Program-made: the position numbers and the translations under genes | The notes under the pieces: generated by a model | What the model was told of the DNA's origin: nothing | The model's database searches: none | Seen by the model: only the letters and a program-made list of their open reading frames with translations | Shown: piece after piece, positions 24,279 through 58,731 of the stretch | Numbering within the stretch: the stretch's first letter is position 1 | Layout of the letters: each line of letters begins with the position of its first letter | From: Patescibacteria group bacterium | GTDB taxonomy: Bacteria > Patescibacteriota > Patescibacteriia > Patescibacteriales > UBA12465 | NCBI GenBank assembly: GCA_050949525.1 | Contig: JBMNFW010000001.1 | Span: 527,890-591,889 of the forward strand | Direction: 5' to 3' | Length of the DNA stretch: 64,000 nucleotides

Positions 24279-24731
24279 CTAATTACAAGCCGTGCTAGTA
24301 GATGTAATTCCAGTTGGAGTAGCACATTTAATACCAGCATCAAGATTTCCAGTGCTTCCCCCTAAACAAAACTCAATTACATAACTAGCACCAGAATTAA
24401 TTTGATGATAATTATAACTAGAGCTAAGACAGGATCCATCAGCTGGACTAGGTCCACTAGGAACAATAGCCATATAAACACTACTAGAATCATAAGCAAT
24501 ACTAGCCCCAGCTACTAAATCACTAGGATATTTCTGCCAATCATTAAAGTATAATTCTAAAGCGGTTTGAATTTGTTTAATATCAGCTATTCTTTTAGCA
24601 TCTCGAGCACTCTTACGAGCCTGTTGTAAAGAAATAACAGCCAAAGTCGCCAAAACACCGATAATAGCAATGACAACTAATAATTCAACTAAAGAAAAAC
24701 CAGCTTTTTTATTTTTCTCTCTTTTAATCAT
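24279..24731 (-). CDS. Type IV pilin-like protein (prepilin N-terminal cleavage/methylation domain)
   Basis: 150 aa. KAGFSLVELLVVIAIIGVLATLAV is a class III signal. The N-terminal ~65 aa are nearly identical to 56970..57410. Confidence 0.85.
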   Translation of the reverse strand: MIKREKNKKAGFSLVELLVVIAIIGVLATLAVISLQQARKSARDAKRIADIKQIQTALELYFNDWQKYPSDLVAGASIAYDSSSVYMAIVPSGPSPADGSCLSSSYNYHQINSGASYVIEFCLGGSTGNLDAGIKCATPTGITSTSTACN

Positions 24732-28817: not shown

Positions 28818-29198
28818 TTAATAATTAGAATAATACTGTTTAACTTGATTTCTTAAATTATCATCACTAAACGAAAATGATAAAACCTTTTTAGCTATAT
28901 CACGCGGAAACATTTTTTTAATAGATGAAACGTAATAAGAGCCATCCATAGGTAATTCATATTTAATAACCCGATCTTCATCTTTATCAAATACAAACTT
29001 ATAAGCCATCGAACTACCAGAACCACTTATTATTTCATTATTTTCCAAATAATAAGACTCAGCTAAAATCCACATATAAGCATAACGATATTTATCATCT
29101 TCTCTAATACCAAAATCATGATAATCTATAAATAACTTATAGGCTTCATTAAATCTTTCTGGATTATTATCATGATCAATTAAATATTGAACAGCCAA
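28818..29198 (-). CDS. Hypothetical protein; the frame stays open upstream and encodes a signal-anchor without a canonical start
   Basis: The track ORF starts at TTG 29198. The same frame is open to 29321 and reads (ATA)KKLILIAIIVIITGLLYFRWGNNNEKLYD before it. Confidence 0.5.
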   Translation of the reverse strand: MAVQYLIDHDNNPERFNEAYKLFIDYHDFGIREDDKYRYAYMWILAESYYLENNEIISGSGSSMAYKFVFDKDEDRVIKYELPMDGSYYVSSIKKMFPRDIAKKVLSFSFSDDNLRNQVKQYYSNY

Positions 29199-29438: not shown

Positions 29439-32400
29439 TTAATCCACCAAATAAGTCTGTCTAACAATATTATATCCATTAAACTTAGTGTCATCCTCCG
29501 ACTTTAAATCAACAGCCTCTAAGGTTTTTGATAATTCACTTAGATATTTAAAGAGCACCGGCCTATTACTCGCCGAACCGCCTGAATGATCATCAATTAC
29601 AATAGCCGTTTTGCGATTTTCTTTTTCGGCCAAACTTTTTACATAACCTATAACCTTATCATAAAAGTCTTTAACCGATAATGAATTAATTAAATTTTCT
29701 ATAGGATTAAAACCTCTAATAACTAACAACGGCTCTCCATTTTTTGATTCTGTTTCAATCAACATAAAAGCTCCGGCTAATCTCTCATATTTTGTTTCTG
29801 GATTTTGTCTAATAATAACCGAGGTAAAATTAGGGAATTCTTTCAAAATACTACTATACTTTGAAGCCCAGCAAGCATCAGCTATATGTCCAGAAAATTC
29901 AGTTAATACCCCCCTGGTCGGAATTAATTGAATTTTAGAAACATCTTTAGATTGGCCACCGACACCTTGTAATAAAGCCATCTCTTCACTAATAGCTTGG
30001 GCTGAAATTATTTCATTGAACATTCTTTTCGCTTTCTTATCAGTAAAATATTTGGACATAGTCTCTTGATTAGTAATATGATCAATAAAATCAAGAACCC
30101 AAGACATATCACTAATATTTGGCCTATCTAAATCAATATTATCCAAATCGAAATTTAAGCTTTGTTTGTTTCTAGCAAAACTCATTAAAAAAACTGACCG
30201 CCTTAATAATTCATTAAATTTATTATTTCTAGCTAAAATTGAAAAATTATTTTGAAAATCTTTCAAATCTCTTATATTAATAGATTCGAGTAAGTTTATT
30301 TTTTGATTAATCCCCTCCCTGGCCATAGGATTGGGCATATTATTAACTTTTTCTTTTAATTCTTTAATCAATTCTAATCTCTTTTTCTCTATTTCTTCCA
30401 CTAATTTACTAAGAGGAAATTTTTCTTGATACAAGTTTTTAGCGGCTTTAATGGAGTCAACTAACACGGAAAATCTATTTAAAAAATGCTCATTAAATTG
30501 ATGATTCTCTCTGCCGCTAGTATCGGATTTGGCGATTAACAATTCTGAGCTAGGTCTAAAATTACGATTAAGCCCTTTTATTTCACCAGCATTCTTATGA
30601 TTAACATAATTAATAATAATATTTTTAAAACTCTCGTCATCCTTTGTCCCCCACCTAGCCTCTTGCAGTCTGATATATGATTGAAAATATGGCAAATACG
30701 AAGAACTATTATCTCCCTGCAATAAAACTTCGGGGTTAAAATCTTCCGAAATAATTTCTTTTTTAAATTCAGTAAATCTCTCCTGTAATTCTCTCAAGCC
30801 GTCATTACCGCCCTTTTTCAATTTTAATTTTTTTATAATTTCTTTGTCATCACCACTAATACCCTTAATCATATTATAATTATCAGCACTAGCAAAAGCT
30901 CCAAATATTTCCGAGGTTTTAGCGACCAACTTATCTAAAGGGGGATTAAAATATTCATTAATTTTTACAATTTTAGGAAATTCCTGAAGCGAATTTATTA
31001 ATTCATTGCCAAAATCCCGATTAAGATTCTCAAATTTTTCTATATTATTAACTAAAGAGTCAACGGCTTTTGTCTCAACTAACTTCAAGGCTATTTCCTG
31101 ATCTAATTTTTTAAATTTTTCCAAATTATCAATTAATAAATTAATATTACCTGCCTCAATCAATCTATTGGCCAAATCTTTATCAGCCGCGAAACATAAA
31201 TCTAAGTCTTCCTGAGAACGAGATAAAATATTTTTATTTGATAATTTAATAAAAAAATAAGTTAAAGTCTGGTTATCGTCGTTCGTAAATAAATCTATAT
31301 TTTTTATATAAAAAGAATCTTCTGGTTTATTTTTAATACTCTTTATAATTGAAAAGAATGAAACAACCTTTTCACCAATATTTTTTTCAATAAACTTATC
31401 AAGATAATCGCCCGAAATCTGGAAATCTAAATCCGACAAAGAATTATTTTTAATAGCATAAATCAAAAAATCTTCAAAAGCTTCAGTTCTGCCTATTTTT
31501 TCAACAAACTTGTTTTTATTATCAGCTGTTAGGCTGATAAAACCTTTATCCAACAACTTCTTTAAAGAATCAGCACTATTAACTTTCTCTAAAAAATAAT
31601 CGAAAAGACCGCAATCTTCAAAATATTTTAAATCAATACTGCTATCCGCAAATCTATCTCCAAAATTATCAATTAAGCCCTTTAGAGTCTCCGAGCTTGG
31701 TTTAAAACTGTTAAAATTTGAGAAGATAATATATTCTTCGCCGGCATCAATAAATAATTGCAAAACTTTATCAGATAAATGAGAGAAGTTTTTTATATTT
31801 TTTTTGATAGCCCCCGCATAACCATTTTCCCATAATTTAATAATATTTTCTTCTCCAATATTATCTATCCTGTTTATTTTTGCCGCCAAAACATCCATAT
31901 CACCTTCATTTATAATATTTGCAATTAAACTATCCGTGGCAATCCCTTCTTTAAGGTCATATCTTCTTAAAATATAAGAACTTTGCCTATTTTTCTTTAA
32001 TTTTTCAATTAATATTTTTTTATCAAAACCAGCGTCACAATACGCAGTTCTTTCTAAAAGGACTGGGGCATAACCATTTTCAGCCATTTCATAAAATTTT
32101 TCTAAATCTTTAACGTTTGCGTGGTTGCGATTGTTGTAATTATCACCCAATACCAAAGTTATATCAGCAATAAACTTATCTCTAGTATCTCGATATTCTT
32201 GCTTATCTTCTTCTGACAAACTATTATTAATTTCATCATCTGCAACTGTTATTCCATAATAAATAATTAACGCATAGGCCTTTTTTAATTCTGATGAACT
32301 CTTAATATGTTTATCAATAAAATCTAATACTAGGTCTTCTCTTGTATCTAAATTAAAGCACTTTAAAATTTTATCTAAAGCCCAAAGAGGATTAGTTTCA

Positions 32401-33179
32401 GGAAAACGATCAAAATTATGTAAAAATTTATCTATCACTTCATCGGCTCCATTATTAAAAATATCTTTAGCCACTAAATTACTGAACGATTCAAATTTAG
32501 GGAAAATTTGGGAATAATATAGATCAGACTGCTGTTTATTTTCAATCATCCTATCAGCGACAAAAGACGGCAAAGTTTTAAAACTATAATAATCACGATC
32601 TCTATAAAAACTGTCTAAAACCCCAAGTTCATTTAGAACCAACAAAGCATCAGAATCAAGATCTCTTTTTTCAAGATTGTATTTATTAGAACCTTTATTT
32701 CTATTATATTCATTTTTATTGGATAAATAATTTTTAGCCGCCTTATAAAAAGCTTCTTTCTTACTATTATTCACCGCAACATCAAGTATGTCCTCGTGAT
32801 CTACGTCCTGCTCTTTCTTATATTGAAGTTCTGGATTTTTATGAAGTTCTGAGGTTTTAAAACTTAATAATAATAAATGATTATAATAACAACTATCTGC
32901 TGTGGCATCTTCACTTAATAAATCAGCTTCTGCCTTAGCGGTTAAAATATTTTTTAAATCAATTATATCTTTTTCAATAGATTGAATTGGACTAATTCCA
33001 TTATTTGATCGCCAATCCATTAATTCCTGCAACCATTCCTGGATAATATCCTCCGCTTTTTTCTCTTGACCGATTTTTTTAAAATAATGACTAAAAATCT
33101 CCGCTGATAAGCCAAGCTCTTTATCAATGTTTTGCCAATATTCAATTTTATTTTCTTTTTTAATTTGTTCAAATTTCAT
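29439..33179 (-). CDS. Very large orphan protein (1246 aa) with no signal peptide or TM segment
   Basis: Uninterrupted 3741-nt ORF, highly polar and Asn/Lys/Asp/Glu/Ile-rich. No catalytic motif recognised except a C-terminal GHIADACWAS ... VIDDHSGGSASNRP Cys/His pair. Confidence 0.7.
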   Translation of the reverse strand: MKFEQIKKENKIEYWQNIDKELGLSAEIFSHYFKKIGQEKKAEDIIQEWLQELMDWRSNNGISPIQSIEKDIIDLKNILTAKAEADLLSEDATADSCYYNHLLLLSFKTSELHKNPELQYKKEQDVDHEDILDVAVNNSKKEAFYKAAKNYLSNKNEYNRNKGSNKYNLEKRDLDSDALLVLNELGVLDSFYRDRDYYSFKTLPSFVADRMIENKQQSDLYYSQIFPKFESFSNLVAKDIFNNGADEVIDKFLHNFDRFPETNPLWALDKILKCFNLDTREDLVLDFIDKHIKSSSELKKAYALIIYYGITVADDEINNSLSEEDKQEYRDTRDKFIADITLVLGDNYNNRNHANVKDLEKFYEMAENGYAPVLLERTAYCDAGFDKKILIEKLKKNRQSSYILRRYDLKEGIATDSLIANIINEGDMDVLAAKINRIDNIGEENIIKLWENGYAGAIKKNIKNFSHLSDKVLQLFIDAGEEYIIFSNFNSFKPSSETLKGLIDNFGDRFADSSIDLKYFEDCGLFDYFLEKVNSADSLKKLLDKGFISLTADNKNKFVEKIGRTEAFEDFLIYAIKNNSLSDLDFQISGDYLDKFIEKNIGEKVVSFFSIIKSIKNKPEDSFYIKNIDLFTNDDNQTLTYFFIKLSNKNILSRSQEDLDLCFAADKDLANRLIEAGNINLLIDNLEKFKKLDQEIALKLVETKAVDSLVNNIEKFENLNRDFGNELINSLQEFPKIVKINEYFNPPLDKLVAKTSEIFGAFASADNYNMIKGISGDDKEIIKKLKLKKGGNDGLRELQERFTEFKKEIISEDFNPEVLLQGDNSSSYLPYFQSYIRLQEARWGTKDDESFKNIIINYVNHKNAGEIKGLNRNFRPSSELLIAKSDTSGRENHQFNEHFLNRFSVLVDSIKAAKNLYQEKFPLSKLVEEIEKKRLELIKELKEKVNNMPNPMAREGINQKINLLESINIRDLKDFQNNFSILARNNKFNELLRRSVFLMSFARNKQSLNFDLDNIDLDRPNISDMSWVLDFIDHITNQETMSKYFTDKKAKRMFNEIISAQAISEEMALLQGVGGQSKDVSKIQLIPTRGVLTEFSGHIADACWASKYSSILKEFPNFTSVIIRQNPETKYERLAGAFMLIETESKNGEPLLVIRGFNPIENLINSLSVKDFYDKVIGYVKSLAEKENRKTAIVIDDHSGGSASNRPVLFKYLSELSKTLEAVDLKSEDDTKFNGYNIVRQTYLVD

Positions 33180-33303
33180 ATTTTATCCAGTAAAATCTTA
33201 TCTTTATTTTACCAATAATTTAGCCATTTGTAAATCAAAACAAGGGCACTCTAGCTAAAAACCTGCTAATTTGGCTAATTTTCTATTCCCATAAAGGTGT
33301 TAG

Positions 33304-33357: not shown

Positions 33358-33377
33358 ATTTAATCAACGCACGGGAT
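33358..33377. repeat. Proximal copy of the direct repeat (tRNA-Trp 3' end plus flank)
   Basis: See 29371..29387. Confidence 0.5.
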
Positions 33378-33440
33378 GCAGGAATCGAACCCACGTCTTT
33401 TCTTTTGGAGAGAAACATGTTACCACTACACCAATCCCGC
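33370..33440 (-). tRNA. trnW: tRNA-Trp (anticodon CCA)
   Basis: Manual cloverleaf: acceptor GCGGGAU/AUCCCGU (G1-U72), anticodon stem UUUCU/AGAAA, loop CUCCAAA, T-loop UUCGAUU. CCA end not encoded. Confidence 0.85.
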
Positions 33441-33493
33441 TCGGGTTTTCATTATATCTAAAAAATATCTTTTTATCAACAACCCTTAGTTTC

Positions 33494-34024
33494 TTAATAA
33501 GTTTCAACAAAGATCTCAAAATGAGCTTGAGGATGAGCACAAGCTGGACATTCTTCTGGAGCCTCTGTTCCCTCGTGAATATAACCACAATTATTACACT
33601 TCCATCTTTTTACTTCATCTCTCTTAAATACCATATCTTTTTCAATATTTTCTAAAAGCTTTTTAAATCGAGCTTCATGAGCTTCTTCAACCTCCGCTAC
33701 TTCACGGAATTGATAAGCGATATCTTCATGCCCCTCCTCTAAGGCTTCTTTTTCCATTCGAGGATACATCGAACTATGCTCATAATTTTCCCCTTCAATA
33801 GCAGCCCTTAAATCATCTTTAATATCCTCATGAATATAACCTAATCTTTTGGCCCATAATTTAGCATGCTCTTTTTCATTACGAGCTGTTTCTTCAAAAA
33901 TATTAGCAATTTGGACATAGCCAGCCTTACGAAAAGCACTGGCATAATAATCATAACGACTACGAGCCATGCATTCACCAGCAAAAGCTTCTTCTAAATT
34001 CTTCTTTGTTTTTTCACCTAACAT
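33494..34024 (-). CDS. rbr: Rubrerythrin
   Basis: 176 aa. Ferritin-like di-iron E..H motifs (EKEHAKLW, EEAHEARF) and a C-terminal rubredoxin-like CNNCG...CPACAHP. Confidence 0.9.
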   Translation of the reverse strand: MLGEKTKKNLEEAFAGECMARSRYDYYASAFRKAGYVQIANIFEETARNEKEHAKLWAKRLGYIHEDIKDDLRAAIEGENYEHSSMYPRMEKEALEEGHEDIAYQFREVAEVEEAHEARFKKLLENIEKDMVFKRDEVKRWKCNNCGYIHEGTEAPEECPACAHPQAHFEIFVETY

Positions 34025-37973: not shown

Positions 37974-38426
37974 TCAAACACCTAAAGAAGAAAAAAGAAA
38001 CTTTATTAAGGCATAAGAAAAGAAAACTATAAAAATACCAACCGTCGCCCAAATAACAATGTTTTTCCCTTTAGTAATATTTTGCTCATTTCCAGCAGCC
38101 GTCATCCAAGTAAAGCCACCATAAACAAACATTAATAAAGATAAAGATCCAACTATTCCTAAAACAGCTGATATTACTCTACCAATTATTAAAGGTATAT
38201 CATCACTCCCAATAGGATTATCTAAACTTACTATAGTTAAATTATCGGATGGAGGAGTATTCTGTCCCTCACCCCCACCGGAACCAGTATTCTGTCCCTC
38301 ACCCCCACCGGAACCAGTATTAGAAGTATTATTAGCTAAAACAACATTAAAAAAAGACAAAGAAAAAACTAAAACTAAACTTAAAGCCAGAAATTTATAA
38401 ACATTATTTTTTTTACTCTTAAACAT
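37974..38426 (-). CDS. T4SS-pilin-like (TrbC/VirB2-type, PF18895-like) small membrane protein
   Basis: 150 aa. Signal peptide, Gly-rich tandem repeat, then IIGRVISAVLGIVGSLSLLMFVYGGFTWMTAAGNEQNITKGKNIVIWATVGIFIVF, the two-helix pilin core. Confidence 0.6.
   Translation of the reverse strand: MFKSKKNNVYKFLALSLVLVFSLSFFNVVLANNTSNTGSGGGEGQNTGSGGGEGQNTPPSDNLTIVSLDNPIGSDDIPLIIGRVISAVLGIVGSLSLLMFVYGGFTWMTAAGNEQNITKGKNIVIWATVGIFIVFFSYALIKFLFSSLGV
38257..38320. repeat. Perfect 30-bp in-frame tandem repeat (2.1 copies) inside the pilin-like gene
   Basis: gtattctgtccctcacccccaccggaacca occurs twice, plus gtat. Encodes TGSGGGEGQN twice. Confidence 0.9.
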
Positions 38427-38437
38427 AAAATTATTAA

Positions 38438-38785
38438 TTAAACACCTATAGAAACAAAAATATATTTAACAACAGCATAGGAAAAGAAAATAAAAGCTAA
38501 TCCTAAAGCTGACCAAATTAAAACACTTTTTCCCTTTTGAACATTCCTATCATTACCTGCGGCAGTCATCCAAACAATACCTCCATAAACAAATAAAACT
38601 AAAGCGATGGATCCAATAACACCAAAAAGAGAACTAATAACCCTACCAATCACCACTGGAGCGCTAGTTCCTAGAGGGCTAATCATACCATCATCAGTAA
38701 CCGGATTAGCTAAGGTTAAGAAAGGCCAAATCAAACTAGCGGACACTAAAAAAAATATAAATTTGCTCTTTAATTTTTTAAACAT
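38438..38785 (-). CDS. T4SS-pilin-like (TrbC/VirB2-type) small membrane protein, paralog
   Basis: 115 aa. VIGRVISSLFGVIGSIALVLFVYGGIVWMTAAGNDRNVQKGKSVLIWSALGLAFIFF. Confidence 0.6.
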   Translation of the reverse strand: MFKKLKSKFIFFLVSASLIWPFLTLANPVTDDGMISPLGTSAPVVIGRVISSLFGVIGSIALVLFVYGGIVWMTAAGNDRNVQKGKSVLIWSALGLAFIFFSYAVVKYIFVSIGV

Positions 38786-56969: not shown

Positions 56970-57410
56970 CTATTGAGAAGACACTCCACCGGGATGAGCA
57001 CACTTTGGTCCAGCATCTAAACCTCCAACTTGACCACCTAAACAAAATGATAAAGTATAGGAACCATTATCCGTGGAAGTCGGAGCATAATCATAACTGT
57101 TTTGATCAGCAGTACAATTTCCATCAGCTGGACTTGGGGCAGTTGGCAAAACCGCCATATAAATATTACTACCACTAGCAATAGTTGAGGTAACGGATGA
57201 AGCAGCTGGATATTCTTGCCAATCATTAAAGTACAATTCTAAAGCAGTTTGAATTTGCTTAATATCGGCAATTCTTTTAGCATCTCGAGCACTCTTACGA
57301 GCCTGTTGTAAAGAAATTACCGCTAAGGTAGCTAAAACACCGATAATAGCAATAACGACTAATAATTCTACTAAAGAAAATCCAGCCTTGTTTTTATTCT
57401 TCTTGTTCAT
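56970..57410 (-). CDS. Type IV pilin-like protein (prepilin N-terminal methylation domain)
   Basis: 146 aa from ATG 57410 (MNKKNKNKAGFSLVELLVVIAIIGVLA). The track ORF extends to TTG 57497, overlapping murA. Confidence 0.85.
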   Translation of the reverse strand: MNKKNKNKAGFSLVELLVVIAIIGVLATLAVISLQQARKSARDAKRIADIKQIQTALELYFNDWQEYPAASSVTSTIASGSNIYMAVLPTAPSPADGNCTADQNSYDYAPTSTDNGSYTLSFCLGGQVGGLDAGPKCAHPGGVSSQ

Positions 57411-57468
57411 ATTGTTATAGTTAAGTTTTATAATTATATTGTAATTATAGCGAAAAAAATGATATTGG

Positions 57469-58731
57469 TCAATCTTCTCGAATAATATTAGCCCCAATTT
57501 TTCTTAAACGCTCATCAATTCTTTCATAACCTCGATCAATCTGATAAATATTATCGATCTCGGTTGTCCCCTTAGCAATTAAAGCTGCAATTAATAGAGC
57601 GATACCAGCTCTAATATCAGGACTAATTAATTTTTTTCCGTAAAGTTTAGTGGGACCAGAAACCACAACTCGATGAGGATCACACATAGTAATGTTAGCT
57701 CCCATCTGTGATAACATATCAGTCCAGATTAATCGTCGATCATAAATAGTTTCATGAATTAAGGAATTACCTTTAGCTTGTGTCATTAAAACTACATAAG
57801 GTGATTGAAGATCAGTAGGAAAACCTGGATATTCATGAGTTTGAATATTATATGGTTTTAAATTTTGACTCTTTTTCATTTGAATATAATTCTTCCCAAC
57901 TTCAAAATTAACTCCAATCTTTTTAAAAACACTCAACAATGCTTCCACATTACTCGGATCACAATTCTTTATTAACAAATCAGATTGAGTAACAGCCGCT
58001 AAAATAGCAAAAGATCCAGTTTCTATTCTATCAGGCATAATTTTAATACTACCACCTCTTAATTTTTTAACTCCATCAATAATGATAGTCGGAGTTCCAG
58101 CTCCCTTAATTTTAGCCCCAACTTTATTCAAATAATCAGCTAAATATTTAATCTCAGGTTCCATAGCACAATTCTTTAAAATTGTTCGTCCTTCAGCCAA
58201 ACAGGCAGTCATCATTAAATTCTCAGTTACAGTTACTGAAACTTTAGGAAAGAAAAACTCCGCCCCCTTTAATTTTTTAGCCTTAAGATGATAAAACTTT
58301 TCCTCAACTTTAATTTCAGCTCCCAAAGCTTTAAAACCATCTAAAAATAAATCGATTGGACGTCCACCCGCACCAATTACACAACCACCTGGATGAGGAA
58401 AACGAATCTCTTTAAAGCGAGCCAATAATGGACCAACAAACATAATCGAGGTTCTAAACTTATCCGCCAACTTAGCTGGGAGCTCCTTAGTTTTTAAATT
58501 TTTAGCTTCAATAACATATTTATTAGAAGACTTCTTCTCAACCTTAAAACCTATAGCCGACATCAACTCCAATGATTTCTCAGTATCCTCAATCCGAGGC
58601 ATATTACTAATTACCATCGGCTCCGCTAATAAAATAGCCGCTGGAATAACCTTTAAAGCTAAATTTTTAGCTCCGTTAACTTTTATTTCCCCAGACAATT
58701 TTTGCTGTCCTTTAATGATAAATTTGGCCAT
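57469..58731 (-). CDS. murA: UDP-N-acetylglucosamine 1-carboxyvinyltransferase
   Basis: 420 aa. KFIIKGQQKLSGEIKVNGAKN, PGGCVIGAGGRPID (active-site Cys) and FPTDLQ motifs. Confidence 0.95.
   Translation of the reverse strand: MAKFIIKGQQKLSGEIKVNGAKNLALKVIPAAILLAEPMVISNMPRIEDTEKSLELMSAIGFKVEKKSSNKYVIEAKNLKTKELPAKLADKFRTSIMFVGPLLARFKEIRFPHPGGCVIGAGGRPIDLFLDGFKALGAEIKVEEKFYHLKAKKLKGAEFFFPKVSVTVTENLMMTACLAEGRTILKNCAMEPEIKYLADYLNKVGAKIKGAGTPTIIIDGVKKLRGGSIKIMPDRIETGSFAILAAVTQSDLLIKNCDPSNVEALLSVFKKIGVNFEVGKNYIQMKKSQNLKPYNIQTHEYPGFPTDLQSPYVVLMTQAKGNSLIHETIYDRRLIWTDMLSQMGANITMCDPHRVVVSGPTKLYGKKLISPDIRAGIALLIAALIAKGTTEIDNIYQIDRGYERIDERLRKIGANIIRED

Follow-up and report, generated by a model that had tools for sequence, protein, structure and literature searches.

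What is the function of a very long protein that a bacterium with a reduced genome retains and that carries no annotated domain? This question is raised by the longest open reading frame (ORF) in a window of 64,000 nucleotides from a Patescibacteria group bacterium (GenBank assembly GCA_050949525.1, contig JBMNFW010000001.1, positions 527,890 to 591,889 of the forward strand). The ORF encodes 1246 amino acids (aa), and the runner-up in the window encodes 1064 aa. The initial annotation, made from the sequence, described the product as a cytoplasmic-looking orphan with a possible papain/transglutaminase-like Cys-His-Asn triad near its C-terminus, and considered a toxin-like effector with an enzymatic warhead. 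Its outline of the gene at 29439-33179 as the largest ORF was confirmed (ATG to TAA on the minus strand). With slightly better than even confidence, we propose that the protein represents a new divergent family of GNAT-fold acyltransferases, in which an acceptor-loop cysteine is combined with a partner-recruiting solenoid. The parts of the protein are listed below by window position.

29439..33179 (-), complete coding sequence of 1246 aa, with ATG at 33177-33179 and TAA at 29439-29441; 22 full-length homologues
30945..33179 (-), residues 1-745, clade-specific all-alpha solenoid of ~45 helices (AlphaFold2 [AF2] predicted local distance difference test [pLDDT] 92.1, predicted template modelling score [pTM] 0.78)
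29961..30944 (-), residues 746-1073, family-conserved helical domain (AF2 pLDDT 94.2), which includes the helix F-x-D-H1034-I-T-N1037-Q-E1039-T...Y-F
30060-30083 (-), DHITNQET, the part of that conserved helix with H1034 and E1039
29442..29960 (-), residues 1074-1246, predicted GNAT-fold domain with the order b1-a1-a2-b2-b3-b4-a3-b5-a4-b6-b7 (secondary structure of the model; Foldseek searches of PDB and BFVD)

A protein family of the Patescibacteria

The term orphan did not survive the database searches. A word-indexed search returned 22 full-length relatives at 59-99% identity and one more at 29-32%; every one is annotated as hypothetical and is free of Pfam domains. We then compared a family profile (residues 47-1246) exhaustively with 1.84 billion cluster representatives using HMMER. 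The number of matching proteins was 985 with E<=1e-3, 644 with E<=1e-10, and 311 with E<=1e-30; Patescibacteria are the source of almost all. Nearly all of these matches are confined to profile positions ~620-1200, beginning at ~620-740 and ending at the C-terminus of the protein, and the N-terminal ~650 aa are common to only ~6 cluster representatives. The family has in common a C-terminal module of ~500 aa, preceded by helical N-termini that vary. In the 1246-aa protein, the portion that is conserved and differs in character extends beyond the last ~180 aa noted initially and comprises the last ~500-560 aa. Family proteins are 600-1700 aa in length and share a nearly fixed end: 117 of 155 members terminate 2-3 residues past the conserved Tyr1243, and only one of the 228 retrievable members extends >30 aa beyond the module.

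Taxonomic placement was based on a second profile search and on scanning a single genome for each species. Members of the family occur in Saccharibacteria, Nomura-, Moran-, Kaiser-, Komeili-, Yonath-, Uhr-, and Falkowbacteria, Paceibacter, and other Parcubacteria. The 1246-aa protein has its closest relatives in metagenome-assembled genomes (MAGs) of Patescibacteria. Outside this phylum, we encountered a few MAGs that are probably mislabelled and one true outlier, in an isolate of Nocardia. Judged from these profile matches, the 1246-aa protein is a member of a large, phylum-wide, and never-annotated family of the Patescibacteria (candidate phyla radiation [CPR] bacteria). Searches of Pfam, NCBIfam, PDB sequences (with the single sequence and a profile), PADLOC, and PHROGs with the query and up to 64 members gave nothing relevant, and no description of the family was found in the literature.

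Predicted fold and conserved residues of the C-terminal module

The AF2 model of residues 741-1246, built from an alignment of 64 sequences, had a mean pLDDT of 94.2 and a pTM of 0.85. In model numbering (residue minus 740), DSSP assigned strands to E336-348, E378-385, E393-405, E410-419, E450-454, E481-483, and E502-504, and helices to H351-359, H371-374, H421-446, and H467-476. The element order of residues 1076-1244 in this model is exactly the canonical GNAT topology. When the model was compared with the PDB using Foldseek, all matches with a probability >0.7 were GNAT-fold proteins. The top match was NatD/Naa40 (7kd7, probability 0.99, E 0.07), and others included the acetyl-CoA (coenzyme A)-bound C-terminal domain of Mycobacterium tuberculosis ICL2, AtaT/KacT/TacT, alphaTAT1, HAT1, Naa50/Naa80, GNA1, and FeeM. 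BFVD, an independent library, gave N-acyl/acetyltransferases, N-myristoyltransferase (NMT), and FemAB. The best reading of residues 1074-1246, as modelled, is that of a divergent GNAT-fold domain within a well-defined but unannotated family.

Conservation was counted over 155 diverse members, and the conserved segments of the domain are the following.

29865..29894 (-), S1096-G-H-I-A-D1101-A-C1103-W-A, alpha1-alpha2 loop; the Cys codon is at 29871-29873
29703..29717 (-), R1155-G-F-N1158-P1159, end of beta4 at the position of the GNAT motif-A loop (from conservation and the model), with a non-canonical sequence
29562..29597 (-), I-D1196-D-H1198-S-G-G-S-A-S-N1205-R1206, end of beta5 and loop to alpha4; the His1198 codon is at 29586-29588
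29472..29489 (-), T1231-K-F-N1234-G-Y1236, conserved beta6-beta7 loop

No other residue of the family is as strictly conserved as Cys1103, which is present in 155 of 155 members. Gly1136, Asn1158, Pro1159, Asn1205, and Arg1206 follow with 99% each, Ser1096, Gly1097, and Trp1104 with 97%, Asp1101 with 96%, Glu1094, Arg1155, Glu1039, Asn1234, and Tyr1236 with 95%, Asp1196 with 92%, and His1034 with 90%. His1198 is retained in 71% of members, with Lys, Asn, and Glu as substitutes, and is Ala, Ser, or Lys in close relatives. The most distant relatives, P0227 and P0228, have neither His1198 nor Asp1196; they retain Cys1103, Asn-Pro, Asn-Arg, Asn1234/Tyr1236, His1034, and Glu1039. When mapped on the model, the conserved polar residues of the domain lie in three loops (a1-a2, b5-a4, and b6-b7) and at the end of b4. 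These four elements build the acyl-CoA cleft and the acceptor site in GNAT proteins. Asn1205, at the N-terminus of alpha4, would occupy the position of the GNAT motif-B Asn. A further conserved pair, His1034 and Glu1039, belongs to the helix DH1034ITNQE1039T of the preceding helical domain.

Within the GNAT superfamily, NatD/Naa40 (7kd7), Naa50, and RimI (5isv) have the same order of strands and helices as the model, and the conserved residues of the family would lie on the same four elements. The differences are considerable: sequence similarity is undetectable, motif A of the family reads R-G-x-N-P, the a1-a2 loop contains an invariant Cys, and the domain is obligatorily fused to a helical domain of ~330 aa and a large solenoid, giving proteins of 600-1700 aa instead of ~150-200 aa.

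A proposed acyl transfer reaction and its alternatives

We propose a three-part cytoplasmic protein, in which the alpha-solenoid (1-745) and the conserved helical domain (746-1073) precede the GNAT-fold domain (1074-1246). An acyl donor, most probably acyl-CoA, would be bound in the beta4/beta5 cleft, whose lining would comprise R1155-G-x-N1158-P1159, where beta4 ends, and N1205-R1206, where alpha4 starts. Since the contig of the related P0017 carries a gene of the ADP-forming acetyl-CoA synthetase type, acetyl-CoA metabolism is present in related genomes. The alpha1-alpha2 loop (S1096-G...D1101-A-C1103-W) may form the acceptor site together with the beta6-beta7 loop (T1231-x-F-N1234-x-Y1236), and His1034 and Glu1039 of the helical domain possibly complete it. 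Cys1103 may take part in the chemistry, either by carrying the acyl group transiently (as a ping-pong thioester) or by serving as a general acid. The variable and exchangeable solenoid may position or recruit a partner macromolecule, much as helical auxiliary subunits do in the Nat complexes of eukaryotes. NatA, NatB, and NatC pair a large helical-repeat auxiliary subunit with a GNAT catalytic subunit, and the best structural matches of the family domain include catalytic subunits of this type. In contrast, the family unites both parts in one polypeptide and its repeat has a period of 27-28 aa and is not a tetratricopeptide repeat; the likeness to Nat complexes is an analogy of working, not a demonstrated homology.

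Several results weigh against an acyltransferase of this kind. The structural matches to GNAT proteins are individually modest (best E 0.07, none <1e-3; target-normalised TM scores ~0.4-0.5, with the best at 0.47-0.50). Because none reached E<1e-3, the fold assignment rests on consistency and topology, not on one strong match. No GNAT family of Pfam (Acetyltransf_* and others) was matched by the query, by 18 members at E<=10, or by 64 members at E<=1e-3. An hhalign comparison of the domain profile with a verified RimI set gave a probability of 0.45%, which is not significant; the best path of this non-significant alignment paired a3-b5-a4 and placed N1205 on the motif-B Asn, Y1212 on Y115, and D1196 on E103. 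The motif-A consensus Q/R-x-x-G-x-G/A is absent, with R1155-G-(L/F)-N1158-P1159-x in its place and Asn-Pro replacing Gly, and Y1212, the equivalent of the motif-B Tyr (N1205 +7), is Tyr in 60% of members, Phe in 15%, and His in 14%. Since motif A is replaced and the Tyr equivalent is kept in only 60%, we regard the family as a divergent GNAT-fold family and not as a standard N-acetyltransferase. A pointer to the substrate was likewise not obtained: no conserved neighbour was found (the commonest neighbour family occurs in at most 7 of 61 loci, and three contigs inspected individually also differ), and N-terminal fusion domains gave only sporadic sub-threshold matches in 64 + 6 members. Furthermore, no cysteine located in a GNAT active site has yet proved to be catalytic, and few GNATs work by a ping-pong mechanism (PMC8072286). 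For this reason, a covalent role of Cys1103 is put forward here as a hypothesis, and we consider it doubtful. The boldest version of the proposal, which we hold to be unlikely, is a GNAT scaffold that acquired Cys1103 as an obligatory nucleophile, possibly activated by His1034 and Glu1039; this would be the first Cys-dependent covalent (ping-pong) GNAT family, performing a CPR-specific acylation of a macromolecule selected by the solenoid.

The donor may not be a CoA ester. Fem/L,F-transferases and LuxI/FeeM enzymes are undetectable by canonical GNAT profiles and do not have a Gly-rich CoA pyrophosphate loop, and a GNAT-fold transferase that uses aminoacyl-tRNA like the former or acyl-ACP (acyl carrier protein) like the latter would account for the non-canonical motif A (R-G-x-N-P as opposed to Q/R-x-x-G-x-G/A). 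FeeM (2g0b) and proteins of the FemAB/NMT type are among the structural matches, and the invariant R1089, R1155, and R1206 could bind RNA or the phosphate of phosphopantetheine. We nevertheless consider such a donor improbable: the best-ranked structural matches are enzymes that use acetyl-CoA, the protein has one GNAT domain where Fem and NMT have a tandem pair, fatty-acid synthesis and ACP are generally thought to be absent in many Patescibacteria, and conserved tRNA- or ACP-related neighbours were not found in the 61 loci. A similarly low probability is given to a non-catalytic GNAT-like sensor or scaffold that has acyl-CoA or some other metabolite as its ligand and regulates or anchors the partners held by the solenoid. 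The model for this is the C-terminal domain of M. tuberculosis isocitrate lyase 2 (ICL2; 6edz, 6ee1), which is likewise GNAT-like, sits at the C-terminus of a large multidomain protein, and in its acetyl-CoA-bound form is among the best structural matches (Foldseek ranks 2-6, probability ~0.9). A scaffold role is suggested by the large solenoid, and the classical catalytic positions are not strictly kept (Y1212 in 60%; the acidic D1196 at the end of b5 lost in P0227/P0228). However, the ICL2 domain is a regulatory one attached to a lyase, whereas the family has no lyase domain and shows conservation of a catalytic type. Its polar cluster (the Cys of D-A-C-W-A in 155 of 155 members, N-P, T-N-R, His1034, and Glu1039) is maintained from 26% to 99% identity, which is more typical of catalysis than of ligand binding alone.

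The two earlier suggestions fare worse. A papain/transglutaminase-like protease or transamidase appears most improbable, even though the Cys-Trp-Ala context and the order Cys...His...Asn exist in the sequence and Cys1103 and Asn1205 are invariant. The protein does contain both segments on which it was based, GHIADACWAS (1097-1106) and AIVIDDHSGGSASNRP (1192-1207); its Cys has the number 1103 and not ~1094, and the His, residue 1198, follows after 95 aa and not ~110. A distinct, enzyme-like C-terminal domain was correctly recognized, but not its class: the predicted topology is that of GNAT, none of the 268 (PDB) and 275 (BFVD) Foldseek matches listed was a papain or transglutaminase, and in the model Cys1103 lies in the loop after alpha1, whereas papain-like folds carry their Cys at the N-terminus of a long helix. 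His1198, at 71% and replaced by Lys, Asn, Glu, Ala, or Ser, is absent in distant members. Because this residue is not conserved among homologues, the triad is refuted, while the fold found is still an enzymatic one. It is also very unlikely that the protein is a secreted or injected effector, or the GNAT toxin within a toxin-antitoxin pair, and that its solenoid serves delivery or targeting. Such a role would suit the structural likeness to AtaT (6ajm/6gtq), KacT (5zgn), and TacT (7ak9), which have the GNAT fold at target-normalised TM scores of 0.41-0.49, and the variable N-termini with intragenic mosaicism at the junction of solenoid and module. Patescibacteria are, moreover, episymbionts that need to manipulate their hosts (PMC10633639, PMC11665869). 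Against it, the toxins are stand-alone proteins of ~160 aa with an adjacent antitoxin gene, whereas the protein studied here has 1246 aa and no conserved antitoxin, immunity, or secretion gene next to it (at most 7 of 61 loci for any neighbour family). It also has no signal peptide or transmembrane segment, marginal hydrophobic segments occur in only 4 of 228 family members, GC content and codon usage are native, the distribution is phylum-wide, and PADLOC, PHROG, plasmid, and phage searches gave no matches. An acyltransferase that most probably uses acyl-CoA is the reading we retain.

Solenoid, mosaic evolution, and surroundings of the gene

Residues 1-745 were modelled from an alignment of 24 sequences. 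Foldseek matched this all-alpha superhelical array of two-helix repeats only to generic HEAT/ARM-type solenoids (importin-beta, CAND1, transportin, CRM1, and condensin CAP-G) at E>=0.01 and a TM score of ~0.15. The likeness in architecture is generic; neither the query nor 64 members matched a Pfam repeat family, including HEAT/ARM, and the repeat period is 27-28 aa. Two blocks of this repeat were delimited using hhalign, the AF2 model, and a comparison of members.

31698..31943 (-), residues 413-494, three copies of a 27-28-aa two-helix repeat, including ENGYAG
30945..31187 (-), residues 665-745, three further copies, including NLEKFKKL and NIEKFENL

The loose repeats noticed initially, ENGYA(P/G) at 367 and 451 and NxEKFxxL at 685 and 712, are part of this real repeat. 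Self-comparison of residues 414-479 with 665-730 using hhalign gave P ~1e-4, and the helix periodicity is visible in the model. Tandem arrays of 8-12 copies with an exact 28-aa period occur in P0120, P0036, P0038, P0109, P0034, and P0093; sub-threshold Pfam matches to GIPC1_GH2 (PF25082) were seen in a few array-bearing members. The repeat appears to be undescribed so far. The module shared by the family begins at ~residue 688, inside the second block.

Sequence comparison shows the modularity of the protein in its evolution. Identity between P0006 and the query is 99-100% for residues 1-745, 65-78% for 746-1073, and 78-88% for the GNAT domain. Since identity falls just downstream of residue ~745, the breakpoint coincides with the junction of solenoid and module (window position ~30945). 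Intragenic mosaicism was noted in P0006, P0007, P0009, and P0011, and other strains dip locally within residues 861-1073. The most conserved segment within the clade is the first half of the GNAT domain.

The outlier mentioned above is a module homologue in Nocardia arseniciresistens KC 131 (NZ_JBKORD010000020.1:18380-31870; L037:1-13491), at a locus with 64% GC. It is 33% identical to the query module, retains the invariant motifs, and corresponds to residues 1974-2509 of an ORF that runs through the entire 13.5-kb locus without meeting a stop codon (at least 4497 aa). At least six tandem XRE-type helix-turn-helix domains (HTH_31/HTH_3) follow the module, and this is the only case of an internal module that we saw. 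The gene could reflect exchange between a Saccharibacteria-type epibiont and its actinobacterial host. Searches of plasmid and phage collections found no homologue of the query module or the Nocardia version. A catalytic C-terminal carboxylate, as in NMT, had been considered for the fixed end of family proteins and was dropped because the Nocardia homologue runs ~2000 residues further.

The window has 31% G+C, and its minus strand carries nearly all genes. The gene has a GC content of 0.292 and a GC content at third codon positions (GC3) of 0.229; the 36 other ORFs have 0.318 +/- 0.026 and 0.205 +/- 0.029, respectively, so that both values lie within ~1 standard deviation. Its codon-usage distance is below the mean of long genes. 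Because GC, GC3, and codon usage match the other ORFs of the window, the gene is native, and its horizontal acquisition was ruled out on the same grounds. The cytoplasmic appearance of the product was also borne out: no signal-peptide-like N-terminus or transmembrane segment was found, with a maximum 19-residue Kyte-Doolittle hydropathy of 0.94. A search of the window revealed a single copy of the family module. Upstream, one candidate promoter was identified.

33206..33234 (-), promoter-like site TTTACA-17-TAAAAT (with TG), between tRNA-Trp and the start codon, by consensus match only

The tRNA-Trp(CCA) gene at 33369-33440 (-) lies directly upstream; a listed 74-aa ORF (33364-33588) overlaps it and is probably spurious. 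Directly downstream, after a gap of 240 nt from the stop codon, is a 126-aa ORF with a TTG start (28818-29198, minus strand) and no Pfam match. The distant full-length relative P0023 (L001:7755-14384) is flanked on both sides by same-strand ORFs without Pfam domains (742 aa upstream and 232 aa downstream), and the three genes could form an operon of unknowns; this arrangement was not seen at the window locus. Elsewhere in the window, among the ORFs 24279-24731, 56970-57497, 37974-38426, and 38438-38785 (all minus strand), two have the N-terminal methylation motif of type IV pilins, and the type IV secretion system (T4SS) pilin family PF18895 is matched by two that are adjacent. These ORFs agree with the pilus and conjugation-like machinery described for Patescibacteria.

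A large part of bacterial diversity belongs to the Patescibacteria, and for most of their conserved proteins no function has been assigned. The present study turns a hypothetical orphan into a defined family of ~1000 clusters at 50% identity with a three-domain architecture, which merits a Pfam or NCBIfam model; none exists for it at present. Cys1103, Asn1158, Asn1205/Arg1206, His1034, and Glu1039 are the candidate catalytic residues. If Cys1103 is catalytic, the mechanism would be unusual for the GNAT superfamily (PMC8072286). Cys-assisted, acyl-CoA-dependent acyl transfer may thus serve as a testable hypothesis for what these proteins of 600 to 1700 aa, kept by reduced genomes, do in the cell.

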